64,000 nt of DNA, from NCBI GenBank assembly GCA_944324315.1, contig CALUVW010000005.1:14927-78926 (forward strand), given 5' to 3'. This DNA comes from Candidatus Gastranaerophilales bacterium. GTDB lineage: Bacteria; Cyanobacteriota; Vampirovibrionia; Gastranaerophilales; Gastranaerophilaceae. A model generated the notes under the pieces. It was not told the DNA's origin. It was given only the letters and a program-made list of their open reading frames with translations, and did no database searches. The translations under genes and the position numbers were made by a program. Below, one piece after another: positions 802-41,876 of this stretch; within the stretch, counting starts at the first letter, position 1; each line of letters starts with the position of its first letter.

Positions 802-1502
802 TGAATATACTTGTTACAGGTACTTCAAAAGGAATAGGGTATGCGATAGCTCAAGAACTTCAGAGTATTGGTGAAGTTTTTGTTACTGGGCGTAATGAGC
901 AGGCACTTGCTGCATGTAATGTCAAAGGTTTTTGTGTTTGTGATTTGTCAAAGGATATAAATGATCTTGCAAAATTTATCGAAGATAAAAATATAGATGT
1001 GCTGGTTAACAATGCAGGCGAATATATTTATGCAGGACTGGAAACTATGAATATTGCTGATATTCAGAGGCTATATCAGACAAATTTGATAGCTCCTGCA
1101 TATTTGATATCTAAGACAATACCTCATATGAAAGGTCAAAGATGGGGTAGAATTATAAATATAGGCTCAATTTCAGGAGTTATGGGCGAAGCTTATGCAA
1201 GTATTTATTCATCGTCAAAATCTGGATTGCTAGGATTAACGAAAGCTCTCGCATTAGAGCTTGCAGAATATGATATAACAGTTAATACAATAAATCCCGG
1301 TTGGGTTGAAACGGAACTTGGAATGAATTCTATTGAAGAGAGTGAGTTTTCAAAAGAGGAGATTATTGATACTATTCCTCAAAAACGTTTTGTAAAACCC
1401 GAAGAGATAGCAAAACTTTGCAAATACTTAATTTCGGAAGACGCAAAAGGAATAACTGGGCAGGCTATAAATATTTGTGCCGGTTTAAGTGTAGGGATAT
1501 AA
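801..1502 (+). CDS. Short-chain dehydrogenase/reductase (SDR) family oxidoreductase
   Basis: TGTSKGIG glycine-rich loop, NNAG motif and a YSSSK catalytic Tyr-x3-Lys. ATG overlaps the tcdA stop (TAATG). Confidence 0.8.
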   Translation: MNILVTGTSKGIGYAIAQELQSIGEVFVTGRNEQALAACNVKGFCVCDLSKDINDLAKFIEDKNIDVLVNNAGEYIYAGLETMNIADIQRLYQTNLIAPAYLISKTIPHMKGQRWGRIINIGSISGVMGEAYASIYSSSKSGLLGLTKALALELAEYDITVNTINPGWVETELGMNSIEESEFSKEEIIDTIPQKRFVKPEEIAKLCKYLISEDAKGITGQAINICAGLSVGI

Positions 1503-2128
1503 TGAATAAAGATTTGATGAATTATGTTGAAACCAGGATTATTCCTAAGTATATGGAGTTTGACAAGGGGCATAATATTGAACATGTCAGAACTGTTATT
1601 GAAGAGAGTTTGAAACTTGCACAAAATTGTGGCGCAAACCTTGAATATTCTTATGTGATAGCCGCATATCATGATTTAGGTTTGTGTGAAGGACGTGAAT
1701 TTCACCATGTTGTTTCAGGAAAAATCTTAGAGTCTGATAATCAATTAAAACAATGGTTTTCGGTAGATGAGATAAAATTAATGAAAGAGGCTGTTGAAGA
1801 TCACAGGGCATCTTCAAAAAATCCGCCGAGAACTGTTTACGGAAAAATTGTTGCAGAAGCTGACCGTGATATTGTACCTTTAAAAATTATAAAGCGAACT
1901 ATTCAATATTCCCTGAACAATACTCCATCTCCTGATAAGGAAACCCATTGGAAACATCTTGTTGATCACATGAAAGAAAAGTATGCCGATGGCGGATATA
2001 TGAAATTGTGGTTTGAAAATTCAAAAAATGCAGAAAATCTTAAAGAATTGCGGAAAATCATACAAAATCAAAAAGAACTGCGAAGAGTTTTTGACCAAAT
2101 ATATGTTGAAACCTTGAATAATCTGTAA
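1502..2128 (+). CDS. HD-domain metal-dependent phosphohydrolase
   Basis: The ORF-track entry 1418..2128 has an internal ATG at 1502 (MNKDLMNYVE) that abuts the SDR stop. It carries H...HD (AAYHDLG) and a downstream DH/D motif. Confidence 0.65.
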   Translation: MNKDLMNYVETRIIPKYMEFDKGHNIEHVRTVIEESLKLAQNCGANLEYSYVIAAYHDLGLCEGREFHHVVSGKILESDNQLKQWFSVDEIKLMKEAVEDHRASSKNPPRTVYGKIVAEADRDIVPLKIIKRTIQYSLNNTPSPDKETHWKHLVDHMKEKYADGGYMKLWFENSKNAENLKELRKIIQNQKELRRVFDQIYVETLNNL

Positions 2129-2142
2129 TAATGTTGTATAAT
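2114..2142 (+). promoter_or_regulatory. Sigma70-like promoter for pilin leader cassette copy 1 (TTGAAT-17-TATAAT)
   Basis: TTGAAT at 2114-2119, a 17-nt spacer and TATAAT at 2137-2142. Cassettes 2 and 3 have the same -35/-10 architecture. Confidence 0.45.
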
Positions 2143-2181
2143 TTATTATATATAATCAGAATAAAGAAAGGAGTTAGATTT

Positions 2182-2235
2182 ATGAAAAGATTATTAAGAA
2201 CTGTAAACCTCGGGGGGGGGGCGATTCAGAGCTAA
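2182..2235 (+). CDS. Upstream mini-ORF (MKRLLRTVNLGGGAIQS*) running through a G10 tract; leader cassette copy 1
   Basis: AAGGAG lies 8 nt upstream of the ATG. The C-terminus LGGGAIQS-stop is identical in copies 1-3, and tandem TAA TAA stops follow. Confidence 0.4.
   Translation: MKRLLRTVNLGGGAIQS
2212..2221 (+). repeat. G10 homopolymer inside the mini-ORF (copy 1)
   Basis: Counted directly: 10 consecutive G, flanked by CCTC and CGATTCAGAGCTAA. Confidence 0.9.
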
Positions 2236-2390
2236 TAAGAGGTCAGGAAGCCCGGAGGTCAAGAAGTCAAGCGATTAACGTCATCCTGAATTTATTTCAG
2301 GATCTAGTATTTAGATGCAAAGATGCTAAGAGGCATAGATGCAAAGTCTGTAACGTAAACACCTTCCTTCCCTTATTAGGGAAGGATAAG
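2236..2390 (+). promoter_or_regulatory. Conserved structured 5' leader of the pilin-like gene (copy 1)
   Basis: It contains AGGTCA(A/G)GAAG words, the hairpin GTCATCCTGAATTTATTTCAGGATCT (2280-2305) and the direct repeat TAGATGCAAAG at 2312-2322 and 2336-2346. An SD-sequestering hairpin CCTTCCC-TTATTA-GGGAAGG lies at 2366-2385. The leader is near-identical to 41713-41876 and largely to 28311-28420. Confidence 0.6.
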
Positions 2391-3158
2391 ATGATGGGTA
2401 GGAATCAATACCCACCCCTGCCCTCCCTAATCAGTGAGGGTGTTAAGCCCGTAGATACCTCGAATAACATTCGTCGAGCAGCTTTTACTCTGGCAGAAGT
2501 TCTCATCACCCTTGGAATAATTGGTGTTGTTGCCGCTATGACAATGCCTGTATTAATTCAAAAACACAAAAATCAGGTGACTGAAGCACGTTTAAAAAAG
2601 TTTTATTCTGTTATTAATCAGGCAATAATAATGTCAGAAGCTGTAAATGGAGAAAGAATTTATTGGGCTGATTTTTATACTGGTAAAGTTGTAAATGCCA
2701 GCACTGTAGAAAGTTGGTTTAATATATATCTTAAACCTTATATGAATATTGTAAAAACAGATAAAAACACTGTTGGTGGCGGTACTGCAGGAAATGTTTT
2801 TTCTGTTTACTTTCCAGATGGCAGTATTTTAAGACAATCCTATGGAAATGGTTATGCTGATTGGGTATTTTATCCGGATGGTGAAAAATGTGCAGAAAGA
2901 TATGGTGGAGCAGGAGGTTCAGGAATTTGCAGATTTCTTTTTTACTATAATCCTTCAGAAGAAAATAGTAAAGGTTTTGAACCATATAAATGGCTTTGGG
3001 ACGGTGACCCGGATAAATTAAAAAAAGCTTGTTATGACAATGTTTCAATTGCCAGCGGTGTAGCTCCAGGTGCTTATTGTACAGCATGGATTCAATACAA
3101 TGGTTGGAAAATCCCTAAGGACTATAAACCTCATAGTTCAAATAAGAAAAAAAGCTAA
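2391..3158 (+). CDS. Prepilin-type N-terminal cleavage/methylation domain protein (type IV pilin / pseudopilin-like) with a 36-aa leader
   Basis: The class-III signal RRAA|FTLAEVLITLGIIGVVAAMTMP has Glu at +5. The long leader is MMGRNQYPPLPSLISEGVKPVDTSNNIRRAA. Confidence 0.8.
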   Translation: MMGRNQYPPLPSLISEGVKPVDTSNNIRRAAFTLAEVLITLGIIGVVAAMTMPVLIQKHKNQVTEARLKKFYSVINQAIIMSEAVNGERIYWADFYTGKVVNASTVESWFNIYLKPYMNIVKTDKNTVGGGTAGNVFSVYFPDGSILRQSYGNGYADWVFYPDGEKCAERYGGAGGSGICRFLFYYNPSEENSKGFEPYKWLWDGDPDKLKKACYDNVSIASGVAPGAYCTAWIQYNGWKIPKDYKPHSSNKKKS

Positions 3159-4152: not shown

Positions 4153-4229
4153 AAATCAATTATATAACAAAAAAACTTTTGGTTATTCTGGAAGTTATAT
4201 TACAAGTTTACACTAATAAACGGAAAAAT

Positions 4230-4256
4230 GTCATGCTGAACTCGTTTCAGCATCTC
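4230..4256 (+). repeat. Dispersed hairpin repeat copy (GTCATGCTGAACTCGTTTCAGCATCTC)
   Basis: Matches the consensus GTCATNCYGAAY-NNR-TTTCRGNATCTC seen at 7 sites in the window. Confidence 0.7.
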
Positions 4257-4384
4257 ACAGCAGTTAGACCCTGCCCGTATTGGGACATTTTGCACGAAAT
4301 CATAGATTTCGGCAAAAGCAGTCAAACAAGTTCATGGTGACATTTTAGATGTTGTTTAATGTAAATTGCGATATAAATTCCCTT

Positions 4385-4405
4385 ATTCTGAACTTGTTTC
4401 AGAAT
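4385..4405 (+). repeat. Dispersed hairpin repeat copy, core only (ATTCTGAACTTGTTTCAGAAT)
   Basis: Same hairpin core with a T-A closing pair, located just upstream of comM/yifB. Confidence 0.6.
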
Positions 4406-4428
4406 TTGTTTTATATTAATATTAATTT

Positions 4429-7463: not shown

Positions 7464-7550
7464 AAATACCCTTTCGAAGGGCAGGATGTCAGGAGGGCAA
7501 GATGTCAAGCTTTTTATCTTTTATACCAGCCTTCCTGTCTTTCTTGCCTT

Positions 7551-9014
<1,464 letters not shown>

Positions 9015-11396: not shown

Positions 11397-13271
11397 ATGA
11401 AAGATAAAATTTTAAGAAAATTTATTGCAGGCTTAATGTTAACGGCATTTGTTTTTACAAACAGTGTCTTAACGGTTGCGGCAATGGAAGATGCCGGAGA
11501 GCTCAATGTTTACGGGCTTGAATCCAAACCTGATTTACGTGACAATCAGGAAGAATATTCTTTAAAATTAAAGGGGGATGTAAGTTTCACAGAGAAAAAT
11601 ATCCCTATAAGCATCAGTTTAAGAGATTCTGATGTTCAGCAAGTTTTGAGAATGTTTGCGGATAAAGCGGGTTTGAATATTATATTCCATAATTCCGTTT
11701 CAGGAACTGTAACGCTTGACTTGGTTGATGTTCCATTAAATAAAGCTTTTGACATGGTTATGGAAATAAATGACCTTAACTATGTTATTGACGGAAAAAC
11801 AATTGTTGTTGCAAAATCCGGTACTTCAGGCTTCAATCTTGCAAAACAGGATATGACTTTGATTCCGGTAAAATATATCAGTGCCTCTGCTCTTGCTGAC
11901 TTTTTAAATAAAAATATTTTTGCAATGCATAAACCGGGCTTATCAAGTTCTGATATTGTTACAACAAATCCTGTGAACAATGAGTTGATTGTATTCGGGA
12001 CGAAAAATGACGTTGCTATAGCCAAGAAAATTGTTGACAAATTTGATAAAAAGCCGCAGACAACTACATTTAAAGTTAACCATACAACTCCGGCAGAAAT
12101 GGCTACTATGATTTGTAGTATGTTGTTGCCGGCTACAGGCGGCGGTGCTACTGGCGGAGCTGCCGGTATTATGACAGGTGCGGCAGCAGCTGATTATAAT
12201 CCAAGCGGAGGTTCATCAGGCGGCGGCGGAGCTGCTGGCGGTGGCGGAGGATCCGGCAGCGGTATAGCGTTGAATGAAGGAACTATTGCTTGTACTTTAG
12301 ATGGTAAAGCAAACGGTTCGATGTCATCATTCGGATTACAAAATTTATCTGTTGCATATTATTCACAGCTAGGTACTATAAGTATTATGGGTGGTTCTGA
12401 ACAGCAGATTGAAATGATAAAAGACTTTATTGCACAAACTGATAAAAAACAGCCTCAGGCATATTTAGAGGTTGCTATTATTGAATTGAATGAAGAAGGA
12501 AGTAAAACATTACAAAATAACTGGACTTTCTTAAGCCACTCTTTCTCAGCTTCATTTGACGGAGAAACAACAAGAACAGATCCTTTACATCCTATATTCT
12601 TTAAAGGCAATGGCTATGATGTATGGGATACAACAAGTGAAGAGCCTGAAATTGTTAACACTTTAAGACCATTCAGCGGTCCGATTAATATATCTTATGC
12701 AATTAATTATTTAATCAGCAACCAGAAAGGACGTATAGTATCAAATCCTAAAATTTTAATAACTAACGGACAGGAAGCTACTATAGATATAACTCAAGAC
12801 TATATTGAATCTACAGAATCCGAACAGAGCGCATACACAGGTGGTACAATTGCTACAAGAACCTATAATATTGCAAGTGATGCAGGTATTAAGGTTGGTA
12901 TTACACCATTCATAAGTCCTGACGGCTATGTTACATTGAATATTACACCGGAATATGCTACTATTTTAAGTCAGGTTCCGGCTCAGGATGAAAATGGTAC
13001 CTATACAGCAGCAACTTTGCTGTCACGTAGAAATCTTGATTTGAAAAATGTTCGAATTAAAGATGGTGAAACACTTGTTATTGCTGGTTTAATTAACGAA
13101 GAAGAACAAAAAACGGTAGGCAAAGTTCCGTTCTTAGGTGATATTCCGGGAATTGGCGCACTGTTCAGATCAACTACTTCTACTAAAAGTAAAAATGAGA
13201 TGGTTATAATGATCACTCCAAAGATTGTTACTGATACAGAGGATGCAGTTGGAAATACCGAAACATTATAG
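11397..13271 (+). CDS. pilQ: Secretin (PilQ/GspD family) with an internal Gly-rich insertion
   Basis: Signal peptide, N-domains, and a C-terminal secretin core (VSNPKILITNGQEATI...VPFLGDIPGIGALFRS). A Gly/Ala/Ser-rich low-complexity linker (GGGATGGAAG...GGGGSGSG) is present. Confidence 0.85.
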   Translation: MKDKILRKFIAGLMLTAFVFTNSVLTVAAMEDAGELNVYGLESKPDLRDNQEEYSLKLKGDVSFTEKNIPISISLRDSDVQQVLRMFADKAGLNIIFHNSVSGTVTLDLVDVPLNKAFDMVMEINDLNYVIDGKTIVVAKSGTSGFNLAKQDMTLIPVKYISASALADFLNKNIFAMHKPGLSSSDIVTTNPVNNELIVFGTKNDVAIAKKIVDKFDKKPQTTTFKVNHTTPAEMATMICSMLLPATGGGATGGAAGIMTGAAAADYNPSGGSSGGGGAAGGGGGSGSGIALNEGTIACTLDGKANGSMSSFGLQNLSVAYYSQLGTISIMGGSEQQIEMIKDFIAQTDKKQPQAYLEVAIIELNEEGSKTLQNNWTFLSHSFSASFDGETTRTDPLHPIFFKGNGYDVWDTTSEEPEIVNTLRPFSGPINISYAINYLISNQKGRIVSNPKILITNGQEATIDITQDYIESTESEQSAYTGGTIATRTYNIASDAGIKVGITPFISPDGYVTLNITPEYATILSQVPAQDENGTYTAATLLSRRNLDLKNVRIKDGETLVIAGLINEEEQKTVGKVPFLGDIPGIGALFRSTTSTKSKNEMVIMITPKIVTDTEDAVGNTETL

Positions 13272-13288
13272 AATAAAATATCAATAAG

Positions 13289-15298
13289 ATGAATGAGCTA
13301 CTTAACAGGTTAAAAAACAGTATCAATACCCAGATACTGAATAAAGTAAACAGCACACTATTGGAACAATATAAATTTGTTCCAATTAGTGTTAAAGATA
13401 ATTTCCTTTTTGTAGCAATAAATTCTACCTCTGATAAAGATGTTATAAACCTTAAACTGAAAGAGTTTTATCCCCAACAGATAAAATTTATACAGGTGCC
13501 CGATCAGGACTTGCTGGATTTAATTGAAAACATAAAATCTGATATGCAAAAATCAGGCCCTGACGATGGTACATCAAAGCAGGTCAGACTCGGAGAACTT
13601 TTAGTTCAAAAAGGTTATATCAATGATGTTCAATTGCTGCAGGCTCTGGCTGAGAGTAAAAGACAAAAAATTCCTATAGGTTCTACTCTTTTTAAACTCG
13701 GATTTATTTCGCTTGATCAACTTAAAGAAATCTTGCATCTTCAAACGGGTTATGATCTTGTAACTCCTGAACAGCTTGCGTCTCAGGCTAAATTTATAAA
13801 AATTCTTCCGGAAGATTTTATCAAAACAAATAAAATTATTCCGATATCTTCTGACGGCAAGACTCTTATTCTTGGTGTTGTTACCCCTGTTAAACCGGAT
13901 ATTCTTAAAGATATTATTTATTTGACAGGACAAAATCCAAAACAGCTTTTGATGACTCATTACGAGTTTGAAAACTCGTTAAACACATTTTTCAGTGAAC
14001 AGAAAAAGGAAACTGAAAAAGTTATCAAAGAAATCGAAAGTGAAGTTGAAGAGCTTGAAGTTGAAGAATCTTTGTCTGATATGGTTGATAAACAGCTGAA
14101 AGATTCAACCGGTTCAGTTGCAAAATTCGTAAACCAGATTATTACAAATGCGATTGACAATAAAGTATCAGATATCCACATAGAACCAAGATTGACAGGG
14201 TATATCGTAAGATACAGAAAAGACGGTATGCTGCAAAAAGTTCTTGATATTCCGCCAAAAGTTGAAACCTCGGTTATTGCACGTTTTAAGGTTTTGTCAA
14301 GAATGAACATCGCAGAACACAGACGACCTCAAGACGGTACGTTTTCCATAAAGTATAAAAACGGATCTTATGACTTCCGTATAAATACTCTTCCTGTTTC
14401 CGGTAAAGAAAAAGTCTGTATTCGTGTACTTGCTCCTGCAGTAAGTTTGAATGCCGAAGATAAAAATATTAAGTTAGTTGGCGGAACTGATGAAGATATT
14501 GCTAAAATTAAAAATATGGTAAGTTGTCCAAACGGTATTATTCTTACATCCGGTCCTACCGGTTCTGGTAAAACAACTACTTTGTATTCGGTATTAAAAA
14601 GTTTGAATGACGAAGATGTTAACATTACTACAATTGAGGACCCGATAGAAATTAAACTTGAAGGTATTAACCAGTCACAGATTAATGCAAAAGCCGGTAT
14701 TACATTCGCATCCTGTATGCGTGCTATCTTAAGACAAGACCCGGATATTATCCTTGTTGGTGAAATTCGTGACTACGAAACATTAGAGATTGCGATATCC
14801 GCGGCATTGACAGGTCACCTTGTATTAAGTACCGTTCACACAAACTCTGCAGCCGCAACAGTTACCCGTTTGATTGAAATGGGAGCAAAAGATTATCTCG
14901 TATCATCAACACTATCAGGGGTTATTGCTCAACGTCTGGTCAGAAAACTTTGTGATGATTGTAAAGAAGAATATTTCGCAAGTCATGAAGAAGCAAGGCA
15001 AATAATCGCAAATGAAGATGAAATTCAAGAATTTATGAAAAAACCGATTTATCGTGCAAAAGGTTGTAATAAATGCGGATTTACCGGTTATAAAGGCCGA
15101 CTTGGCGTATATGAAATTATGACAATTAATAAAGAAATTAAAAAGTTAATTGCAAAGGGTGCTCATGATTTGGAAATTGAAGAATCTGCAGTTAGACATG
15201 GCATGAGGACACTTAATCAATCATGTATCAGCCATATACTTAATGGCATGACAACAATTTCTGAATTTGTAAGGGTACTCGGTGTTGTTAACGAATAG
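13289..15298 (+). CDS. pilB: GspE/PilB-family type IV pilus / T2SS assembly ATPase
   Basis: Walker A GPTGSGKTT, Asp and His boxes, and a tetracysteine motif CDDC...CNKC. It also has T2SSE_N-like N-terminal domains. Confidence 0.9.
   Translation: MNELLNRLKNSINTQILNKVNSTLLEQYKFVPISVKDNFLFVAINSTSDKDVINLKLKEFYPQQIKFIQVPDQDLLDLIENIKSDMQKSGPDDGTSKQVRLGELLVQKGYINDVQLLQALAESKRQKIPIGSTLFKLGFISLDQLKEILHLQTGYDLVTPEQLASQAKFIKILPEDFIKTNKIIPISSDGKTLILGVVTPVKPDILKDIIYLTGQNPKQLLMTHYEFENSLNTFFSEQKKETEKVIKEIESEVEELEVEESLSDMVDKQLKDSTGSVAKFVNQIITNAIDNKVSDIHIEPRLTGYIVRYRKDGMLQKVLDIPPKVETSVIARFKVLSRMNIAEHRRPQDGTFSIKYKNGSYDFRINTLPVSGKEKVCIRVLAPAVSLNAEDKNIKLVGGTDEDIAKIKNMVSCPNGIILTSGPTGSGKTTTLYSVLKSLNDEDVNITTIEDPIEIKLEGINQSQINAKAGITFASCMRAILRQDPDIILVGEIRDYETLEIAISAALTGHLVLSTVHTNSAAATVTRLIEMGAKDYLVSSTLSGVIAQRLVRKLCDDCKEEYFASHEEARQIIANEDEIQEFMKKPIYRAKGCNKCGFTGYKGRLGVYEIMTINKEIKKLIAKGAHDLEIEESAVRHGMRTLNQSCISHILNGMTTISEFVRVLGVVNE
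13586..13744 (+). other. MshEN-like tandem motif (candidate c-di-GMP-binding region) within the pilus ATPase
   Basis: The two motifs are RLGELLVQKGYINDVQLLQALAES and IGSTLFKLGFISLDQLKEILHLQ. Both follow the RLGxxLLxxGLIxxxxLxxxLxxQ pattern described for MshE-type N-domains. Confidence 0.5.
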
Positions 15299-15306
15299 GA
15301 GAAATA

Positions 15307-16530
15307 ATGGCAATATATAATTACATAGCTTTAAAAAATAATAAAGATATCGTAAAAGGTAAAGTTGATGCCGAAGACTTGAGAGAAGCAAGAGAAAGTA
15401 TTCGAAAACTCGGCTTTATTCCGACAAAAGTTTATGAGGAAAAAGGCAAAGAAGACAATAAAGCCGCTAAGGGAGATGTAAAAGGCGGGAAAATTCAAAA
15501 ACTCGGGCTTCAAGATCGTATTGATTTCACCTCAACTTTGCAAATATTGGCTCAGGCAGGTATTCCTATTATTGAATCTTTGATGTTTATTGAAAACGAT
15601 GCGGCAAAGCTCAGAGTAAGACTTGTTGCAAAAGAATTAAGACGTCAGATTATGGCAGGTGCTACATTTGCTGATACGGTTGCAAGATATCCCGAACAGT
15701 TTGGACAGGTATATATCGGTCTTGTAAAAGCCGGTGAAGATTCCGGTGAACTTGAAAAAACTTTGCAACGTCTTTTGGAATTGCAGACAAAAGAGGCAAA
15801 TATCAGAGGTAAAGTTATCGGAACATTGATGTATCCGATGTTCGTTATTGTTTTGGCAGTAATTATTGTACTTGTTATGTTAATGTTCGTATTCCCTGTA
15901 TTCAAAGAAATGTTTGACGGTATGGGAAAAGAACTGCCATGGATTACGGCGACATTGATGAGTGCCGGTGTGTTCTTAAAAACATACTGGTTTTTTGCTC
16001 CGATTATATTAGGTTCTATGGTTGGTTTTTGTACATTCATCATGAGATGGCAGCCTTCAAAAAGAAAAGTTGACGAATATGTATTAAAAATTCCTCTTTT
16101 ATCTGATTTGATGCAATTTTCAAACTTTGCAAACTTTGTTGCGGTTATGCAGGTTGCGTACGACGCAGGTGTTCCGATTATTGAGTGTTTATACCTTGCG
16201 AATTTGACTCTTACAAACTATACACTTAAAACAAAAATAGAAGCAGCAACTCTAAAAGTTCAACAGGGGCAGCATTTATCTGTTGCATTAAGATCAACTG
16301 GGGTTATGCCAAAGATGATTTTGTTTATGATTGCAACCGGTGAACAATCTGGTCGTTTGGGTGATATGCTTTTGCAGGCAACATCTTATATTGATAAAAA
16401 ACTTGATACAATTATTGATACAATGACAAAAATGATTGAGCCGATAATGCTTATCGTAATTGGTAGTATTGTATTGACATTGGCTCTTGCACTTTACTTA
16501 CCGCTGTTCAATTCTTATATGACAGATTAG
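15307..16530 (+). CDS. pilC: GspF/PilC-family platform protein
   Basis: 407 aa. It has two repeated T2SSF domains and three TM segments, and follows the ATPase by 8 nt. Confidence 0.9.
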   Translation: MAIYNYIALKNNKDIVKGKVDAEDLREARESIRKLGFIPTKVYEEKGKEDNKAAKGDVKGGKIQKLGLQDRIDFTSTLQILAQAGIPIIESLMFIENDAAKLRVRLVAKELRRQIMAGATFADTVARYPEQFGQVYIGLVKAGEDSGELEKTLQRLLELQTKEANIRGKVIGTLMYPMFVIVLAVIIVLVMLMFVFPVFKEMFDGMGKELPWITATLMSAGVFLKTYWFFAPIILGSMVGFCTFIMRWQPSKRKVDEYVLKIPLLSDLMQFSNFANFVAVMQVAYDAGVPIIECLYLANLTLTNYTLKTKIEAATLKVQQGQHLSVALRSTGVMPKMILFMIATGEQSGRLGDMLLQATSYIDKKLDTIIDTMTKMIEPIMLIVIGSIVLTLALALYLPLFNSYMTD

Positions 16531-16547
16531 TGAAAAGGAATTTATTT

Positions 16548-17366
16548 ATGAAAAAAACGTATGTAATTACGGGGACAACTTCCGGTATAGGGAAAAACCT
16601 GCTTGAAGTCTTTGCAAAAAATAACATTGTTTTTGCAGGCTATAGAAATGAAAAATATCTTGAGGATTTAAAGGCGGTCTCGGATAATGTAATCCCTTTT
16701 TTCATAGACATGGAAAATAAATCATCAATTGCACAGGCTGCAGCATTTATTAAATCTAAAACAGATAAAATTGATACCTTGATAAATGTTGCAGGATGTG
16801 TTGTTGCAGGATTAATGGACAGAATTGATGTTGATGATATAAGAAAGCAGTTTGAAGTTAATACTTTTTCGCATCTTGATTTGACACAAAGATTATTACC
16901 TTTATTAAAAGGCGGAAAAATCATAAATATAAGTTCTATGGCAAGTTTTGGGATATTTCCTTTTGTTGCCCCATATTGTGCCTCAAAACGGGCTATGGAT
17001 ATTTTGTTTAATTCTCTTGCTGTAGAATCAAACATAAAAGTAGTTTCGGTTAAACCTGGAGTCATTGCAACTCCTCTGTGGGGAAAATCCGTTGAACTTA
17101 ATAAAAAATCAATTGAAAATTGTAAAGAATATGAAAAACAGATGCAATATATGATTTCGAATGCTAAAAAGAACGAAACCAATGGTCTTGATGTTCATAA
17201 AGTCACTGACCTGATAATAAAAATTGACGGAGATGACAATCCTAAAGCATCTTACACAGTAGGTAAAGATGCATTTTTTGCTAAATTAGCATCAAAACTT
17301 CCTCAAGATTGGATTAACAAGATGATAAGGTACGGAATAAAATCTAAGATTTCTTCCGTAAAATAA
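16548..17366 (+). CDS. SDR-family oxidoreductase
   Basis: ITGTTSGIG loop and a YCASK catalytic motif. The ATG at 16548 is preferred over the GTG at 16530. Confidence 0.75.
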   Translation: MKKTYVITGTTSGIGKNLLEVFAKNNIVFAGYRNEKYLEDLKAVSDNVIPFFIDMENKSSIAQAAAFIKSKTDKIDTLINVAGCVVAGLMDRIDVDDIRKQFEVNTFSHLDLTQRLLPLLKGGKIINISSMASFGIFPFVAPYCASKRAMDILFNSLAVESNIKVVSVKPGVIATPLWGKSVELNKKSIENCKEYEKQMQYMISNAKKNETNGLDVHKVTDLIIKIDGDDNPKASYTVGKDAFFAKLASKLPQDWINKMIRYGIKSKISSVK

Positions 17367-17580
17367 TTTCGTAATTTAAAATATCCGCTATTTCTGCAAG
17401 TTCAGAGACTCGAAATGTTTTGTTGCGCAGTTTGTTACTAAGGTTGTTATTACTATCACTTTTACCGTATTTTTCGTTAACAAGTTCTTTTACTCTTTTT
17501 ACGGTAAGACCGTCAATGGCTGCGAGATATTTGATTTGTAGGGCTAATTTATCTGTTTCAAGTATTATTTCTCTGTCCAT
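17344..17580 (-). CDS. Small putative DNA-binding (HTH-like) protein, divergent from a pilin-like gene
   Basis: 78 aa. The pattern LTVKRVKELVNEKYG...LSNKLRNKTFRVSELAEIADIL resembles short XRE/phage-repressor-type HTH proteins. This is a weak call. Confidence 0.35.
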   Translation of the reverse strand: MDREIILETDKLALQIKYLAAIDGLTVKRVKELVNEKYGKSDSNNNLSNKLRNKTFRVSELAEIADILNYEIILRKKS

Positions 17581-17622
17581 TAAAGAATAATACTATTTAT
17601 TAATTAATAAAGACAATAGATA

Positions 17623-17651
17623 TTGACATTATTAATTATATAGTTAATAAT
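17623..17651 (+). promoter_or_regulatory. Sigma70-like promoter for the pilin-like gene 17691 (TTGACA-16/17-TAATAAT)
   Basis: TTGACA at 17623-17628 and an AT-rich -10 near 17645-17651. It is embedded in TTAATTAAT palindromic words. Confidence 0.4.
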
Positions 17652-17690
17652 ATATATTAAATAATTAATTAATATGACAGGAGGATTTTT

Positions 17691-18326
17691 ATGAAAAAAG
17701 GGTTTACGTTAGCTGAAGTTCTGATAACACTCGGTATTATAGGCGTAGTAGCTTCAATAACCATGACGTCGTTGATTGCAGAGCATCAAAAGTTGGTGAC
17801 AGTTACAAAATTGAAAAAAGCTTATAACGTCTTAAATAATGCTATTAGATTGGCAGAAGTTGAACATGGAGATAAGTCTCAATGGGGTGATTCTAATAAC
17901 GATGAATGTGGACTTTATATTTATAATCATTATGTTAGAGGTAAATTAAAAGTTCTTAAAGATGTAGAAGATACTGGCTCTAATTGTCAATCTGATCCTG
18001 AAATTGTATTAGCTGATGGTATTGTTCTGGATTCTTTTATTAATTGGAGTCCCTTAAGTCGGGACGCTTTCACTGTTGATATAAATGGGGCAGCGGGGCC
18101 TAATAAAGTGGGTAGAGATAGATTTGACTTTTTCTATTCAAGTAAATATGGATATGCGCCTGCTGGTTTTTGTGATCATCCGGAATGGTCACCTTCCGAT
18201 TGTGTCGCAACAGATGGTAGTAGGAATGATGTGAAAAATGCCGGATGTAATGAGCGAAATAAGTTTTTATGTGGTGCATTAATTATGATGGATGGGTGGC
18301 AAATAAAAGACGATTATCCATGGTAG
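17691..18326 (+). CDS. Prepilin-type N-terminal cleavage/methylation domain protein with a classical short leader
   Basis: MKKG|FTLAEVLITLGIIGVVASITM, and a C-terminal VDINGAAGPNKVGRDRFDFF motif shared with the other paralogues. AGGAGG SD. Confidence 0.85.
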   Translation: MKKGFTLAEVLITLGIIGVVASITMTSLIAEHQKLVTVTKLKKAYNVLNNAIRLAEVEHGDKSQWGDSNNDECGLYIYNHYVRGKLKVLKDVEDTGSNCQSDPEIVLADGIVLDSFINWSPLSRDAFTVDINGAAGPNKVGRDRFDFFYSSKYGYAPAGFCDHPEWSPSDCVATDGSRNDVKNAGCNERNKFLCGALIMMDGWQIKDDYPW

Positions 18327-21182: not shown

Positions 21183-21371
21183 TAATTCTTTACATTAGTT
21201 AATAATTTGGCAACAAAAATTCTTTACAGATTTTAATTTTATAAATTGTGTTGTGTGTAATTTTATTAAGTATTTGTAATATTAAATGGTAAAACAAATT
21301 TGCTCTTGGTAAAATTATATAACCGGACGATTACAATATAATTAAAATAAAATTTGAAAGGAAATAGAAGT

Positions 21372-24300
21372 ATGATTCAAGTTAAAGCAGGTAAAAGAAA
21401 AGTTGTTGCATCGGCATTAACGTTTTGTTTCTTTTTGCAGCAGTCATTTTGCTTGCAGGTCGTGGCAACAAATATTACCGGTGTGGAAGGTGTAAACGGT
21501 GTATTTAATATAGATCCGACTGCAACTAACGGAGATATCGGCTTTAGAAAATATAATGACTTTAACTTGAGTCAGGGTGATATTGCTAATTTGATTTTCC
21601 ATGATTCAACAAGTGGCAAAGATATTTCTACGTTTGTAAACCTTGTTGACAATACAATTAATATCCGAGGGATTGTTAATGCAGTAAATGCCGCAGGAAA
21701 TATTGACGGCAGCGGGCATGCTGTTTTTGTTTCTCCAAATGGTATGGTTGTAGGAGCAAGCGGGGTTTTAAATGTAGGCTCTTTGTCTATTTTGACTCCG
21801 GAGCAGAGTTCATATGAAAAATATAAAAGTGATTTACGGAATCCTACTCTTATCAAAGATTACGAATCAAGATTGAGCACTCCAGGTAACGGTAATGTTT
21901 CTATCAACGGCAATGTTCTTGCACGTGATTTTATAGATATAAATGCAGCAAATGTAAATATCGGTAATAATGCTATTTTACTGGCTGGAGTAAAGGATAA
22001 TACAGTTCTATCATCCGGTGCACAAGCTGAAAGATTGTTTAATCAATTGGTTAACACTGATAATGTAAGTAACGCTAACAATCTGGCAAATGAAAACGGA
22101 AGCATTGTGATAAAGTCTTACGGTGCAAATGGTGGAACAAATGTTGCAGGAACTATGAAAAATTTTGGAGCCGGTAATATTCAAATTACTAATTCAGGCT
22201 CAAGAGGCGTAAATATTTCAGGAACAACAACAAATTTTAACGGAAATACGTTAATAGAGAATACAAACGGTGGAGTTAGCGTTTCCGGTAATGTAGAAAA
22301 TTCAGGTAATGCCGGATCTATAAAAATAAATAACAGTGGTGCTGAAGGTGTTAATATTTCCGGTGAGCTTTCTAACTATAATACTGCTAAGACATCCGGC
22401 AGTATAGGTGAAATTTCTATAAGAAATACCGGTTCTAAAGGTATATATGTTTCTGGAACTGTTTCAAATTCATCGAAGGGGAAGGAACAACAGACTAATA
22501 TCCTTAATTATAATGAAAATTCTGGTATAAAAATTTCTAATACCGGAAAAGTTGTAACTGATGGTGATGTAAATATAATTAATAACGGTACTGATGGTAT
22601 TAATGTAAATGGTATAGTTAACGGGAATAATATTAATATAGATAATCAAAATTCTAATGTTGTATTAGGTTACAATACCGGTAAAGATTATTTGAACGCT
22701 TCTAATAATGTTAATATCTCAGTTGTTAACGGAAACTTGCTAAATTACGGTACAACAGCAAATCTTATTAAAGCCGGTAATAATTTGAATATTGATGTTC
22801 AAAATGGTTCTATAGGTAAAGAAGTAGGACCTTGTGACGGTGGTATTTGTACTGGTATAGGACCTGATGCAAGAGATTTGACAAAATCTGTTAACATCGC
22901 AGTAGACGGCAAGGTTAGCGCTGAAAGTACTAAAGGCTCAAATAATTCTTTAATTAACCTTGCAAGCATAGACAAAAATATGAATGTTGATCGGATAAAA
23001 GCTGACGGCAGAGTTATTTTGCTTGCAGACAGTTCCGTAAAAGGTTCAAAAGCTTATGATATCGTTAATGCTTCTACAGATTCTACAAAACCGAATGTCG
23101 AAGGTGCAGGTATTTCAATAATTTCAAGCGGTAATATCGGTTCTAAAGACAATGCGCTCACTTTCAGACAGACTCAAGGAGTTTTCGGAAATGTTGATTC
23201 TAACTTGAATTATTCGTCAGATGCAAAATACGGTGTTGATATGCTTGCTATTAAAGATATTAACATTAAAGGACTGGATTCTGCAGACGGGAAAAAACTT
23301 GATACAAACGTATGCGGATTGATTTCACGTGAAGGTTCAATAAATGCAGAATTTTCAGGAGATACATATATAAGAGAAACTACTGCTGCTAACAATATAA
23401 ATATTGTTAACCGTGGCAAAGAAATTTATATAAGCAATTTAGGTGAAGTTCCAACCTATCCTCAAGATTATTTCGGTGCAAATGGAAATATAAATCCTGA
23501 TAAAGTTACAATTTCAGCATTAGACTTAGGAACATCATGGCCTAATAATCCTGCTGACTCAAGAATAATAATTAAGAATGCTGTTGTTGACGGTTTGGGG
23601 CTTGGCAGACCGTCACATGAACAGGATTTGACTCTTGTTGCAGATAATATTTATGCTGGCGGTTATTATTTTAATATGGGTAAAAATAGAGGACAAACAA
23701 GTGAAGATCCTTTAAGATTTAACCCTTCAAGTATAACTATTGATAACAGAACAAATAAAATTACGACATCTGATGGTGAAACGGTTTCCATAAGAGCAAA
23801 AGCGGTAAGACCTGATGATGTTACTGCAATTGGGAAAAATGAAGATGAACGTAATTATTATTATGGGGGTAGCTCTCAAGGTAAAGATGACGGATATGAT
23901 GGTGTAAACGGTGGAAATGATCCTGATAAACAAGGTTCAGAGGAAGATGATGATAACCTCGTAGTACCTAAGGAAGATGATCCTGTTATTCCCGTAGATG
24001 ATGATTCCGATTCAGACTCGGATACCGATACGGATACCGACACTGATACAGATATTGATACTGACACCGATACGGATACAGATACAGATGTCGATACCGA
24101 TACAGATAACGATAACGATAATGATAATGACAGTGATTCAGATACTGATATGGATACCGATACGGATAATGACACTGATTCAGATACCGACACTGATATA
24201 GATACGGATACGGATTCCGATTCAGACTCGGACACTGATACTGATACCGACACTGATACAGATATTGATACTGACACCGATACGGATACAGATACAGATA

Positions 24301-25292
24301 CCGATAATGATTCAGATACCGATAATGATTCAGACTCTGATACTGACAATGACACGGATAATGATAATGATTCGGATAATGACATGGATAGTGATACCGA
24401 TAATGATACTGACAATGACACAGATACCGATATGGATACAGATACGGACACTGACACTGATAATGATACCGATACAGATAATGACAGTGACTCGGATACT
24501 GATATAGACAGTGATACCGATACAGACATGGATACAGATTCAGATACTGATACTGACAATGACAGCGACAGTGATAGTGATAGTGATAGTGATAGTGATA
24601 ACGATTCCGATAGTGATACTGACTCGGATACAGATACAGACACTGATACTGATACCGATACGGATGTAGATACAGATACTGATAGTGACACTGATACAGA
24701 TTCAGACACGGATACTGACAATGACAGTGATAATGATACCGACAATGACAATGACAATGATAACGACAATGATAACGATATGGATTCAGATACTGACATT
24801 GATTCCGATTCGGATACCGACACAGACATAGATACGGATTCCGATTCTGATTCAGATTCTGACGATGATGATGATATTAGTATTCCTAATGAAGATATGG
24901 GAAAATATACATATAAACAGCGTGTTGTCGATTATAATGTAAATTCTATTGACAAACGTCAGTATATGAGATTTGATACAAGGGATAATCGTAATCCTGT
25001 TCATCTTGCAGAAAATACTCAAATTGAATCCTTATTAGATATATCGCGCGGCGGTATTGCAGTAACTCATAAAAACGGTTTGAAAGTCGGTGATGTTGTT
25101 CCTGTTCACATTTCATACGGTAATTTGGATATTAATGCAGATGTGAAAATAGTTTCAGCTAATGATAGACGGGCAGGAGCAGAGTTTATTAACCTTGACC
25201 AAGCTACTGCAAACAAGATTCTTTATATGAATATAATGCTTGAAGAGCAAACTGCAGCTAGAGCAAAAGATAATCTTTCATATTTAAAATAG
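21372..25292 (+). CDS. Giant exoprotein-like protein: signal peptide + TPS (haemagglutination-activity) domain + beta-helical repeats + acidic D-T/D-S/D-N repeat + C-terminal PilZ domain
   Basis: It has a signal-like N-terminus and a TPS-type motif ([24 protein letters not shown]). Gly/Asn-rich repeats such as NISG..NNSG follow, then about 290 aa of Asp-X dipeptides. The PilZ motifs are RQYMR (RxxxR) and DISRGG (DxSxxG). The ATG at 21372 is preferred over the TTG at 21354. Confidence 0.8.
23995..24876 (+). repeat. Coding low-complexity repeat (GAY-ACN/WSN/AAY)n encoding (D-T/S/N/I/M)n
   Basis: About 880 nt of near-periodic 6-nt units, read directly. Confidence 0.9.
24951..25255 (+). other. 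PilZ (c-di-GMP receptor) domain at the C-terminus of the TPS-domain protein
   Basis: KRQYMRFD...[11 protein letters not shown] gives the canonical RxxxR and D/NxSxxG motifs at typical spacing. Confidence 0.75.
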
Positions 25293-28196: not shown

Positions 28197-28225
28197 TTGA
28201 AAACATTTAAGAAATATGTTAAAAT
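28197..28225 (+). promoter_or_regulatory. Sigma70-like promoter for leader cassette copy 2 (TTGAAA-17-TGtTAAAAT)
   Basis: TTGAAA at 28197-28202, a 17-nt spacer, and an extended -10 TG-n-TAAAAT at 28217-28225. Confidence 0.5.
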
Positions 28226-28256
28226 ATAAATATCATAAAAAAGAAAAGAGTAATGT

Positions 28257-28310
28257 ATGAAGAGATTAACTATGCCTGAAATCCTCGGGGGGGGGGCAAT
28301 TCAGAGCTAA
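28257..28310 (+). CDS. Upstream mini-ORF (MKRLTMPEILGGGAIQS*) through a G10 tract; leader cassette copy 2
   Basis: Same C-terminus and stop context as copies 1 and 3. The SD (AAGAG) is weak. Confidence 0.35.
   Translation: MKRLTMPEILGGGAIQS
28287..28296 (+). repeat. G10 homopolymer (copy 2)
   Basis: Counted directly. Confidence 0.9.
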
Positions 28311-28355
28311 CAGGAGGTCATGAAGCCCAGAGGTCAAGAAGTCAAGAGATTAGTT

Positions 28356-28380
28356 TCATCCAGTATTTATTTCAGGATCT
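28356..28380 (+). repeat. Degenerate copy of the dispersed hairpin repeat within leader cassette 2
   Basis: In TCATCCAGTATTTATTTCAGGATCT the left arm is mutated relative to copy 1. Confidence 0.5.
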
Positions 28381-28492
28381 AGCATTTAGATGCAAAGATG
28401 CTAAGAGGCATAGATGCAAAGCAGCATTTATTCTTGCCGAAGGTGCTACGCACGTAGCCCACTCTCAGAATATTCGTCGAGCAGCTTTTACT

Positions 28493-41155: not shown

Positions 41156-41602
41156 ATGGAAATGAAATCATGGGAAGACTACTTTTTAGACCTTGCAAAA
41201 ACATGTGCCAGCAGATCAAATTGCATAAGAGCGCAGGTAGGTGCCGTAATTGTCGGTGATGATAAAAAAATTAAGGCAACAGGTTATAACGGAACGCCTT
41301 CTAAGGTAGAATCATGCTATGAGAGAGGCGAATGCTACAGGATAAAGCATAATATACCCTCAGGAACCAAATATGAAACCTGCAGATCAATTCATGCCGA
41401 ACAAAATGCAATTATTCAGGCAGGGCAAGACAGATGTAAAGGTTCTACAATGTATATATGGGGACATAATTTTATTTGTATCTTGTGTAAAAGATTTATC
41501 GTGCAGTCAGGTATAACAAATGTAGTATTACGAAAGGATGAAAATTCACCTGTCTTGCATGTAACAGTTGAAGATATCAGACGAGAACTTGAAGAAGTAT
41601 AG
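41156..41602 (+). CDS. comEB: dCMP deaminase (ComEB-type cytidine/deoxycytidylate deaminase)
   Basis: HAEQNAI zinc motif and a C..C pair. The ATG at 41156 after GAGGCGGG is preferred over the TTG at 41102. Confidence 0.8.
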   Translation: MEMKSWEDYFLDLAKTCASRSNCIRAQVGAVIVGDDKKIKATGYNGTPSKVESCYERGECYRIKHNIPSGTKYETCRSIHAEQNAIIQAGQDRCKGSTMYIWGHNFICILCKRFIVQSGITNVVLRKDENSPVLHVTVEDIRRELEEV

Positions 41603-41617
41603 AATGTATGTTATACT
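41589..41617 (+). promoter_or_regulatory. Sigma70-like promoter for leader cassette copy 3 (TTGAAG-17-TGtTATACT)
   Basis: TTGAAG at 41589-41594, a 17-nt spacer, and an extended -10 TG-n-TATACT at 41609-41617. Confidence 0.5.
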
Positions 41618-41655
41618 AAAAAAGGTAATATTTAAGTTTAATAAGGAGCAGATGT

Positions 41656-41712: not shown

Positions 41713-41762
41713 TAAGAGGGCATGAAGCCTGGAGGTCAAGAAGTCAAGCAAGTTTACAAAAA

Positions 41763-41789: not shown

Positions 41790-41876
41790 ATAATTAGATG
41801 AAAAGATGCTAAGAGGCATAGATGCAAAGTCTGTAACGAAAACCCCTTCCTTCCCTTATTAGGGAAGGATAAGAGG

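Follow-up and report, generated by a model that had tools for sequence, protein, structure and literature searches.

Cassettes in front of four pilin-like genes

The window analysed here, a 64-kb stretch of DNA (64,000 nucleotides) from a gut Melainabacterium, holds six type IV pilin-like genes, and four of them are preceded by a conserved cassette (c1 to c4). The motif AFTLAEVLITLGIIGVVAAMT is found in all six genes, and their N-termini carry (G/A)↓F-x-x-x-E (the arrow marks the cleavage site) together with a hydrophobic helix, as is typical of type IV pilins and pseudopilins. The N_methyl domain (PF07963) was matched in c1, in c3 and in the gene at 17691, and c4 scored 20.6 bits, just under the 21.2-bit cut-off. 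A secretin, a PilB-like ATPase and a platform protein are encoded at 11397-16530; no peptidase gene was found in the window. An exact-protein look-up of the c1 pilin returned no record. The parts of the four cassettes are as follows.

Cassette c1
2114-2142, + strand: promoter-like site TTGAAT-17-TATAAT (10/12 matches)
2182-2235, + strand: start ORF MKRLLRTVNLGGGAIQS, then a stop; prepilin N-terminus, out of frame; SD AAGGAG at 2168-2173
2212-2221, + strand: G10 run; relative to the start ORF, the pilin is read at -1
2222-2483, + strand: presequence, without stops in the pilin frame
2240-2266, + strand: GGAGGTCAAGAAG words
2280-2305, + strand: hairpin hpA
2312-2346, + strand: direct repeat
2363-2440, + strand: composite palindrome hpB-mid-hpC
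2391, + strand: internal SD-ATG, overlapped by the palindrome
2484-3158, + strand: mature pilin-like part with N_methyl and DUF6613, beginning at the F of A↓FTLAEVLITLG and ending at the stop

Cassette c2
28197-28225, + strand: promoter-like site TTGAAA-17-TAAAAT, TG-extended
28257-28310, + strand: start ORF MKRLTMPEILGGGAIQS, then a stop
28287-28296, + strand: G10 run
28297-28486, + strand: presequence, stop-free in the pilin frame; a AAFILAEGATHVAHSQNIRR module replaces the palindrome
28487-29272, + strand: mature pilin-like part

Cassette c3
41589-41617, + strand: promoter-like site TTGAAG-17-TATACT
41656-41712, + strand: start ORF MKDMLKNIKYLGGGAIQS, then a stop
41689-41698, + strand: G10 run
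41699-41966, + strand: presequence in the pilin frame, with one TGA interruption (41799-41801)
41877, + strand: internal SD-ATG
41967-42704, + strand: mature pilin-like part

Cassette c4
60178-60216, - strand: start ORF MLNRKLRIAPPP, then a stop; SD AGGAGG
60182-60191, - strand: C10 run on the coding strand, within the start ORF
59921-60181, - strand: presequence, stop-free in the pilin frame
59988-60074, - strand: composite palindrome
59198-59920, - strand: mature pilin-like part (A↓FTLSEVLITLG)

An earlier note on this DNA had described a recurring module at these four places, and inspection together with alignment of the copies bore it out at each of them. The TTGAA(T/A/G)-17 promoter-like sites, the SD and mini-ORF, the exact G10 tract within the mini-ORF and the GGAGGTCAAGAAG words that it attributed to copies 1-3 are all present in those copies, and the cassette is indeed missing from the two genes of classical pilin type, whose F codons lie at 17703 and 63597. 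Other parts of the description needed amendment. Hairpin hpA occurs in copies 1-3 but is degraded in c2; the direct repeat, TAGATGCAAAG-N13-TAGATGCAAAG, also occurs in copies 1-3 but has one mismatch in the first repeat copy of c3; and what had been counted as two hairpins are actually three, which jointly form one composite palindrome of roughly 75 nt. Its 20-nt arms are 80-90% complementary and enclose an inner palindrome; it is found in c1, c3 and c4 and is missing from c2. In c4, hpA and the direct repeat are both absent, the GGAGGTCAAGAAG word is read in a frame different from that in c1, and the run, taken with some 15 nt of flank, corresponds to the G-type core in reverse complement. 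Lying directly against the ORF at 60226-60870, cassette c4 lacks a separate promoter.

Apart from the four 10-mers, the 64-kb window contains no G/C run that reaches 7 bases, and the composition of the window predicts 0.004 runs of at least 10. Thus, chance is excluded as the origin of the runs.

Reading frames on either side of the run

The earlier note took the stretch in front of the pilin genes as a non-coding structured leader of about 250 nt that contains a separate mini-ORF. This part did not hold. Between the run and the pilin, the sequence is stop-free in the pilin frame and has many stops in the other two. The pilin frame lies at -1 relative to the start ORF in all four copies and is open after the run, except for the single TGA in c3; this codon is a minority allele, since the c3 locus is represented by six sequences (the window, L003, L085-L087 and L089) and four of them have TGC instead. 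The mini-ORF is the genuine SD-ATG start of the prepilin, put out of frame by the run. Between the run and the F codon, c2 offers no ATG, GTG or TTG in the pilin frame, and therefore no alternative start. On these grounds taken together, the G10 tract is the key part of the cassette rather than one item on a list.

When the length of the run was changed in simulation, 11 or 8 bases fused the start ORF to the pilin, giving proteins of 325, 338 and 339 aa for c1, c2 and c4 (the values for a run of 11; c1 with 8 bases gives 324 aa), and 9, 10 or 12 bases gave products of 12-32 aa. As in contingency loci, a G/C homopolymer of at least 8 bases is present, and a change in its length switches translation in simulation. 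The predicted ON-state leaders of c1, c2 and c4 are about 100, 77 and 99 aa long, well beyond the 5-30 aa of short class III leaders. Leaders of type IVa pilins comprise about 5-7 aa and those of type IVb pilins about 15-30 aa, and we know of no presequence of about 100 aa among type IV pilins (5-30 aa). The class III signal peptides of type IV pilins (reviewed in PMC4471445) share with the present proteins the cleavage motif (G/A)↓FTLAE, the hydrophobic helix and the N_methyl domain. The predicted ON-state presequences differ in that they span about 15-170 aa among the relatives (5-462 nt from run to F) and are made of palindromic or hairpin modules read in varying frames.

The arrangement recurs across the order. 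Relatives were examined in two independent samples, 80 loci from GTDB and 80 from metagenomes, and a run was scored if it had 9-14 bases and lay no more than 600 nt upstream of a pilin N-terminus. Among these 160 related loci of Gastranaerophilales, 73 of 136 pilin N-termini were preceded by a G/C run, and at 67 of the 73 no stop codon interrupted the pilin frame between run and F. Where the run lay 45 nt or more from F, the pilin frame was free of stops in 52/57 cases compared with 1/57 and 2/57 for the other frames, which contained 253 and 333 stops against 20 in the pilin frame. No in-frame start of any kind existed at 30 of the 67 loci.

The start was in frame with the pilin at 8 of the 67 loci and out of frame at 59, which places the in-frame state far below the expected one third (P = 0.004 in each sample). 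Run lengths among the relatives varied from 9 to 13, the commonest states being a run of 10 that requires +1 and a run of 11 that requires -1. The in-frame state was avoided whatever length it required, and the out-of-frame phase was retained within each start-ORF family across species. G runs and C runs both occur, as expected of a mechanism acting on double-stranded DNA. The flanks of the run are variable except for a C (or G) at each border, and there is no conserved hairpin within 10 nt. Run length is conserved, whereas the encoded peptide (GGG versus PPP) is not.

Silent or decaying genes, either frameshifted pseudogenes or a donor reservoir for recombination like pilS of Neisseria, would fit the out-of-frame state of almost every copy, the nonsense codon in c3 and the interrupted run in L001 and L002. 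They would also fit the 5' parts of c1-c3, which are almost identical in front of divergent bodies, and L088, where the front of c1 is joined to the body of c3. Pseudogenes, however, are expected to collect stops in all frames; here, the promoter, the strong SD-ATG, the exact run, the stop-free presequence and the body are kept across many species, and the defect always lies exactly at the run. We consider silent copies very unlikely.

Hairpins, palindromes and inverted cores

A reading in line with that of the earlier note would make the cassette a non-coding regulatory leader: the mini-ORF would be a regulatory uORF, sensing for example ribosome stalling on Gly-Gly-Gly or Pro-Pro-Pro, and the hairpins an attenuator or RNA switch over an internal start. 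Consistent with this, c1, c3 and c4 each contain an internal SD-ATG, a start that might circumvent the run, and its SD lies inside the 3' arm of hpB; hpA is rated terminator-like; and the c4 leader folds better than its shuffles (z = -3.1). Moreover, in L008, L048 and L076 a genuine terminator-like hairpin stands downstream of the run-bearing start ORF and the pilin gene has its own start, the upstream ORF of the L008 type ending 9 nt before the terminator. On the other hand, the pilin frame is open after the run at 67/73 loci with the other frames closed, and neither c2 nor 30 other loci have a start in that frame. Identical nucleotide modules are read in different frames in different genes, and it is the length of the run that is conserved and not the GGG or PPP peptide. 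Rfam gave no matches at gathering score over the whole window and none at E <= 1 over 2050-2600, and the advantage of c1 over its shuffles in folding is marginal (z = -1.6). A non-coding leader thus seems quite unlikely to us. We reject an EF-P or stalling-type uORF on GGG or PPP as the main role, since the run length rather than the peptide is conserved and the downstream frame is coding.

Hairpin hpA differs between c1 and c3 by one compensatory pair. As a terminator it was discarded for its weak tail and its degraded stem in c2, and it is retained just as a possible means of tightening the OFF state. Hairpins of the hpA type also occur between genes at 4231-4258 and 4385-4410. A scan for tRNA and tmRNA detected no genes in the window.

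A MITE-like insertion, or a promoter or segment flipped by a recombinase, could explain why c1, c3 and c4 but not c2 carry the palindrome, and why hpA-type hairpins stand in intergenic positions. It could also explain why the C-run core, flanks included, matches the inverted G-run core (profile score 5.41, compared with 5.19 for G-type cores against themselves and 4.14 ± 0.57 for random sequence). We nonetheless regard this explanation as extremely unlikely. Neither terminal inverted repeats nor target duplications were found around the cassette or the run, and gene-independent dispersal of the kind shown by insertion elements is not seen either. Within the window, the modules are confined to the four cassettes except for hpA- or word-like matches at 4224-4259 and 7478-7514; in relatives, they occur mostly in pilin leaders, with few weak matches elsewhere. 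A search for inverted repeats flanking the run, which a segment invertible in the manner of fimS or shufflons would have, returned only AT-rich chance matches. Orthologs of each locus show one orientation throughout rather than both, the G-type and C-type cores being mutually inverted as fixed differences between lineages, and inversion would leave the frame unaffected. A plasmid collection searched by blastn at distant sensitivity gave no match. The earlier note had proposed checks for a known RNA family, an insertion element and random scattering of the cassette; no Rfam match explains the element, a plasmid or insertion-element explanation is likewise absent, and the modules keep largely to pilin leaders.

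Run length, probable phase variation and related systems

The layout of the cassettes and the frame relations among relatives suggest that the runs probably serve slipped-strand phase variation in which the OFF state dominates. Each cassette would then form the 5' end of its pilin-like gene, and the number of bases in the G:C homopolymer would control expression. Transcription would begin at a sigma-70-type promoter in c1-c3 and be carried by the upstream gene in c4, and ribosomes would initiate at the strong SD-ATG about 30 nt 5' of the run. With 10 bases, the OFF state, they would meet a stop a few codons on and make the 12-18-aa product of the mini-ORF. With 11 (or 8) bases, the ON state, they would read through a presequence of about 70-100 codons into A↓FTLAEVLITLG, and prepilin peptidase would then remove the whole presequence. 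Slipped-strand mispairing during replication, presumably at a useful rate, would alter the run length, and therefore a minority of cells would turn on each gene independently; the populations sampled here would be mostly OFF. Hairpin hpB may tighten the OFF state by pairing with the internal SD, and hpA may contribute through weak termination when the RNA is untranslated.

Alleles that are in frame over their full length exist at related loci: L035 (C11), L059 (G11), L092 (G9), L114 (G11), L132 (G10), L155 (G11), L162 (G9) and P0127. In three pairs of more distantly related loci, a single base flips the frame: L162 with G9 is ON and L165 with G10 is OFF, L114 with G11 is ON and L095 with G12 is OFF, and L132 with G10 is ON and L096 with G11 is OFF. 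Such one-base differences show that change at the DNA level does occur among related loci. Among 19 near-identical copies, several of which are assemblies of 2-6x coverage, the run length did not vary at all: G10 was found nine times in c1, c2 and c3 with L003 and L085-L089, C10 four times in c4 with L030, L090 and L091, and G11 three times in L008, L048 and L076, and two further pairs were concordant. Strict ortholog clustering for run-length polymorphism yielded identical lengths only. When the simulated fusions were searched twice against protein collections, covering 5.8 billion proteins, the in-frame alleles that turned up belonged to related loci and none to c1-c4. A DNA pattern on the flanks of the c1-c3 runs, designed to retrieve run-length variants, gave no match in JGI metagenomes. 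The constant run length and the lack of in-frame alleles of c1-c4 count against phase variation, as do the scarcity of the in-frame state, the phase kept by each start-ORF family, the presequences of about 100 aa and the internal SD-ATG of c1, c3 and c4.

Least credible among the readings that we weighed is an error of homopolymer sequencing or assembly that hides true lengths lying in frame. Illumina G tracts are error-prone, and database lengths may err (PMC9187656), but the same length recurs across many independent assemblies, assemblers and depths, and assemblies report 9, 11, 12 and 13 elsewhere. Moreover, a simple bias in base calling would not account for the avoidance of the in-frame length in both directions.

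A more serious rival, although we hold it to be unlikely, is programmed recoding, in which the out-of-frame run is fixed and is overcome by slippage of RNA polymerase or by a -1/+1 shift of the ribosome on GGG or CCC; small amounts of every pilin would then be produced in each cell from unchanged DNA. This would fit the out-of-frame layout conserved across species (59/67), the phase kept in each start-ORF family, and the identical run lengths in all near-identical copies, low-coverage assemblies included. It would likewise fit the avoidance of the in-frame state at any length, runs of 10 needing +1 and of 11 needing -1 being commonest, and a 10-base homopolymer is a perfect slippery site. In contrast, no conserved stimulator lies by the run, whose flanks vary and whose first hairpin follows about 60 nt 3'; different families require opposite directions of shift; and in-frame alleles one DNA base apart exist. 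Productive transcriptional slippage is, to our knowledge, known on A/T runs (see also the review cited in PMC9187656). Programmed slippage and frameshifting, as in Thermus dnaX, Shigella mxiE and IS elements, also involve two ORFs that are out of frame across species and joined at a homopolymer, but they employ A/T runs or heptamers with a nearby stimulator; here none was found, and both directions occur. It is conceivable, if doubtful, that the out-of-frame state is a selected, permanent design, and that about half of the family is expressed solely through RNA-level slippage or frameshifting on G/C runs, providing low, noisy doses of many alternative subunits. The L008-type run, by setting the length of the upstream ORF, would then be a homopolymer-tuned attenuator, and the hairpin-built presequences would be part of the RNA-level control instead of passive spacers.

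Under slipped-strand phase variation, the pilin genes most likely act as contingency loci of a kind known from other bacteria. The earlier note had proposed a dedicated switching device on pilin-like genes that matched no known element. The device is indeed dedicated to pilin-like genes and very probably switches expression; the second part is probably wrong, as pilus genes with homopolymer contingency loci in their 5' coding regions are already known. The surface-protein families of the vlp/vsp type in Mycoplasma are multigene families switched by homopolymers. They have, like the cassettes, a conserved 5' block of promoter, start and leader in front of divergent bodies, but their run lies in the promoter spacer and their products are lipoproteins.

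Closer to the present genes, Jonsson et al. reportedly described in 1991 a poly-G tract in the signal-peptide coding region of Neisseria pilC1/pilC2. Neisseria pilC1 is handled as a homopolymer contingency gene (PMC5231331). There, as here, a G run in the 5' coding part comes before the mature portion of a type IV pilus protein, and its length sets the frame of the start codon; switching is stochastic and on/off, as we propose for our loci. PilC, however, is not a pilin: it has a Sec signal and serves as a tip adhesin, it is encoded by one or two genes per genome with no long presequence, and its length variation among strains is common, unlike in our close copies, which show none. Contingency genes with poly-G/C tracts are also found in Campylobacter and Helicobacter (PMC6321876, PMC2823697). 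Like our genome, theirs are of low GC content and host-associated, with rare long G/C runs that are concentrated in surface-structure genes and, at 9-11 bases, set the frame. They belong to another phylum and concern another gene family, and ON and OFF lengths are both common in their genomes.

The sortase-dependent pilus genes of Bifidobacterium breve UCC2003 are split by G10-G12 tracts, with a second ORF that lacks a start and in-frame alleles that are in the minority (PMC9187656). This gut commensal thus parallels our case in two ORFs of the first pilin precursor that are joined only at certain lengths of the G tract, in the startless second ORF and minority of in-frame genotypes, and in tracts of 10-12 that recur across the genus. 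Its pili, however, are of the Gram-positive sortase type with a Sec signal and an LPXTG motif, and only two loci are involved, whereas in our case the run is present in roughly half the members of a large type IV pilin-like family. Heterogeneity in B. breve was measured by error-corrected sequencing; that of the present loci is a prediction. A search of the literature on Melainabacteria or Gastranaerophilales together with phase variation or pilin gave no earlier description.

The novelty lies in the presequences: they reach about 170 codons, an unusual length, and are mosaic and rich in hairpins. Two features are left unexplained by the textbook model: the strong, conserved bias toward the out-of-frame state and the building of presequences of up to about 170 codons from palindromic modules. 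For annotation, the consequence is practical. Run-bearing genes are mis-annotated in MAGs as truncated, N-terminally extended or split, and the frame rule offers a simple fix.

In conclusion, about half of the type IV pilin-like genes of Gastranaerophilales appear to be controlled by a frame switch that turns on a single base. These gut Melainabacteria are uncultured, and their contact with the host is almost uncharacterised. If our interpretation is true, their surface-filament subunits would form a large repertoire, combinatorial and for the most part silent. Such a repertoire is a hallmark of immune or phage evasion in pathogens; here it would belong to a commensal relative of Cyanobacteria.

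Reading frames of the run-bearing pilin genes

Six genes in the window (G+C 34.7%) have a type IV pilin N-terminus, (G/A)/FTLAEVLITLGIIGVVA, the slash marking cleavage. The Pfam family N_methyl was found in four of the five complete pilin-like genes, c4 falling just under the cut-off, and was absent from the truncated call for c2; DUF6613 was assigned to c1 and to the gene at 17691. The latter, at the end of the stretch 11397-18326, follows a type IV pilus/T2SS-like machinery cluster and a short-chain dehydrogenase, whereas the four run-bearing genes, c1 to c4, are dispersed among housekeeping genes.

Cassettes, machinery and classical pilin gene in the window
near 2114-2563, + strand, cassette of c1
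11397-13271, secretin
13289-15298, PilB/MshE-like ATPase
15307-16530, platform protein
17691, classical run-free pilin gene
near 28197-28545, + strand, cassette of c2
near 41589-42040, + strand, cassette of c3
near 59880-60216, - strand, cassette of c4

The window also encodes (entry 21354-25292, 43303-49035, 49363-53814) a 1312-aa protein whose sole Pfam match is a C-terminal PilZ domain, the flagellar genes FliF and FlhA directly downstream of c3, and a 1483-aa ORF without any Pfam match.

Alignment bore out the earlier note in placing a shared module before four of the six genes, with the promoter-like sites of c1-c3 exactly where it had put them, and the mini-ORFs, G10 runs, GGAGGTCAAGAAG words, hairpin and direct repeat were all found. 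Its fourth copy is a diverged relative lacking a promoter, hairpin and direct repeat of its own, and has a C10 run on the coding strand within its own mini-ORF (MLNRKLRIAPPP-stop). The two hairpins it described are in fact three, jointly forming one composite palindrome of ~75 nt. Apart from the four 10-mers, no G/C run of at least 7 occurs in the 64 kb, where composition predicts 0.004 runs of at least 10; the only other long homopolymers, T10 (57699-57708) and A9 (8995-9003), are both intergenic.

Three-frame translation and simulation of run length spoke against the view of the leader as non-coding with a separate mini-ORF. In c1, c2 and c4 the pilin frame is open backwards from FTLAEV to the run across the whole leader; the c1 leader has 9-10 stops in the remaining two frames. 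In all four copies the pilin frame is offset by -1 from the mini-ORF. With the run set in silico to 11 or 8, one continuous ORF extends from the mini-ORF ATG (325/324 aa in c1, 338/337 aa in c2, 339/338 aa in c4), and with 9, 10 or 12 the product is 12-32 aa. The c3 presequence has one TGA, a minority allele, since four of six c3-locus sequences (window and five orthologs) read TGC. In c2 no ATG, GTG or TTG occurs between the run and F, the first mature residue, and the only listed start is a TTG at 28493, within the FTLAEV motif itself; the mini-ORF SD-ATG is thus the only plausible start of c2. These frame relations and simulated lengths indicate that the mini-ORF probably encodes the prepilin N-terminus out of frame, and that the leader is probably a translated presequence. 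A purely non-coding regulatory leader is very improbable given the stop-free pilin frame and the existence of loci that, like c2, lack a start of their own.

An overlapping double start, ATGTATG, occurs at 28253-28259 and 41652-41658 and in the related locus L066. The first of the two ATGs shares the pilin frame, but in c2 and c3 reading from it meets a stop three codons short of the run; in L066 this ATG reads via G10 into a 355-aa pilin.

The same design among relatives

Protein searches placed these genes in Gastranaerophilaceae/Melainabacteria. The N-terminal extensions of the homologs are long, mosaic and assembled from the same modules: FRCKDAKRHRCKVC, FLPLLGKDKRMGxNQYPPLPSLIREG, AFTLAEGATHVxxSxNIRR, and VILNLFQDL, alternatively read HPELVSGS. 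Two independent sets of pilin genes, not otherwise selected, were taken (80 loci in GTDB species genomes and 80 on metagenome contigs) and gave 136 pilin N-termini with sufficient upstream DNA. Of these, 73 had a run of 9-14 G or C within 600 nt upstream (61 G, 12 C), with lengths 9/10/11/12/13 in 6/42/20/3/2 loci, and a strong SD-ATG stood 12-40 nt upstream of almost every run. The pilin frame was stop-free from run to F in 67/73, and 30 of these 67 had no canonical start in the presequence. Where the run was at least 45 nt away, the pilin frame was stop-free in 52/57 loci and the other two frames in 1/57 and 2/57; stop counts were 20, against 253 and 333.

Short versions exist in which the run lies in a leader of ordinary length, 21 nt before F in L009 (M...SGGGG-QSNLKPG/FTLAEV) and 5 nt before GF in L079. 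The basic design therefore appears to be a homopolymer within the leader-peptide coding region, and the window's long cassettes seem to be versions with in-frame modules inserted between run and cleavage site.

In two c2 orthologs (L001, L002; 2996-3005) the run reads GGGGGGTGGG, still 10 nt but interrupted; a GTG thereby arises in the pilin frame and was taken as start by the gene caller (P0002). Either a locked variant or an error from low coverage could explain this.

In-frame and out-of-frame alleles

The SD-ATG was in frame with the pilin (ON) in only 8/67 loci (P = 0.004 against one third, in each sample).

In-frame full-length alleles, with related out-of-frame (OFF) loci
L035, C11, 247 aa
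L059, G11, 294 aa
L092, G9, 207 aa
L114, G11; OFF L095, G12
L132, G10; OFF L096, G11
L155, G11
L162, G9; OFF L165, G10
P0127

Run length in the three pairs of related loci differs by a single base, which flips the frame, apparently the signature of slipped-strand variation. We consider a contingency locus the best-supported and probably the correct reading: DNA slippage at the run would join or separate start codon and pilin, and the sampled populations would be kept mostly OFF. Run length was single within every set of near-identical copies, several from 2-6x assemblies: G10 in nine (c1/c2/c3, L003, L085-L089), C10 in four (c4, L030, L090, L091), G11 in three (L008, L048, L076), and identical in two further pairs. 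This constancy would count against a fast switch. Among 5.8 billion proteins there was no in-frame allele of c1-c4. Phase is kept within each start-ORF family: +1 nt is needed in the MKxLL... and C-type families, -1 nt in the MQN/MEN... families. An artefact could not account for the in-frame length being avoided in both directions.

The invariant run length and conserved phases speak for a fixed design in which the out-of-frame run is read through via RNA-polymerase slippage or ribosomal frameshifting. We regard this main rival as unlikely, because no stimulator adjoins the run, both shift directions would be required, and the runs are G/C, not A/T; it is, however, compatible with a contingency locus.

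Among the cassettes, c1, c3 and c4 each have an internal SD (GGGAAGGA) to which hpB, part of the composite palindrome, pairs, and hpB could suppress run-independent initiation; the terminator-like hairpin hpA could reduce untranslated OFF transcripts. In L008 (1241-1520; also L048, L076) a promoter and SD-ATG start ORF (MQKTDIERISGGGATN-stop) with a G11 run precede a terminator-like hairpin (1421-1440 plus TGATTTTT) and a pilin gene with its own SD-ATG. At G12 the start ORF would extend and stop 9 nt before the hairpin, so the arrangement could be an attenuator set by run length.

Modules, precedents and scale

From gene to gene, the frame in which a given nucleotide word is read differs: GGAGGTCAAGAAG gives RSRS in c1 and EVKK in c4, and hpA encodes VILNLFQDL or HPELVSGS. 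Selection therefore seems to act on frame continuity rather than peptide sequence, which fits a discarded presequence. An nhmmer search found cassette modules in the leaders of pilin genes from other species. The run cores of G type and C type are mutual reverse complements, including ~15 nt of flank (profile score 5.41; G-type self-comparison 5.19; random sequence 4.14 +/- 0.57), and the relation holds for c4 (60182-60216 versus 2212-2235) and all C-type loci. Inverted in silico, the c1 core gives ...ALNRPPPEVYSS, resembling the start ORFs of C-type loci (...ALRVAPPP, ...ALKCPPP). The relation would go back to an old inversion of a core of ~45 bp and not to an active switch, since each locus keeps one orientation.

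The module AFTLAEGATHVxxxxNxRRxAFTLAEV (window 28424-28486; P0011, P0012, P0017, P0023, P0028, P0032 and many other homologs) comprises a pilin N-terminus copied in truncated form, ~14 residues and the real N-terminus; its DNA has a small hairpin (GCTACGCACGTAGC), and it resembles the trace that unequal recombination among pilin genes would leave. Set against window 1394-2555 and 41643-42780, the contig L088 (ENA ERZ24773320, coverage 2.4x) links the gene upstream of c1, together with the c1 promoter and start ORF, to the c3 pilin body and downstream flank, the crossover falling within shared hpB. Two cassettes 39 kb apart may have recombined, or the contig may be a chimera assembled at the repeat. 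Intergenic hairpins of the cassette type (GTCATGCTGAACTCGTTTCAGCATC and TTATTCTGAACTTGTTTCAGAATTTG) and a word-like repeat (GGATGTCAGGAGGGCAAGATGTCAAGC; entry 4231-4258, 4385-4410, 7478-7514) indicate that some of the cassette modules are members of dispersed repeat families.

As a kind, frame switching of pilus genes by a homopolymer in their 5' coding region is already known. Neisseria pilC has a poly-G tract in its signal-peptide region. The pilC1 tract has been described (PMC5231331), and in Bifidobacterium breve the first pilin gene of two pilus operons is split by G10-12 tracts (PMC9187656). As here, the second B. breve ORF lacks a start and in-frame genotypes are a minority, there rising in the gut (PMC9187656). 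For Melainabacteria, our literature search found no earlier description. Unusual features are the scale, with about half the members of a large family of type IV pilin-like genes involved; presequences that reach ~170 codons and are assembled from palindromic modules, where known type IV pilins have 5-30 aa; and the strong conservation of the out-of-frame state.
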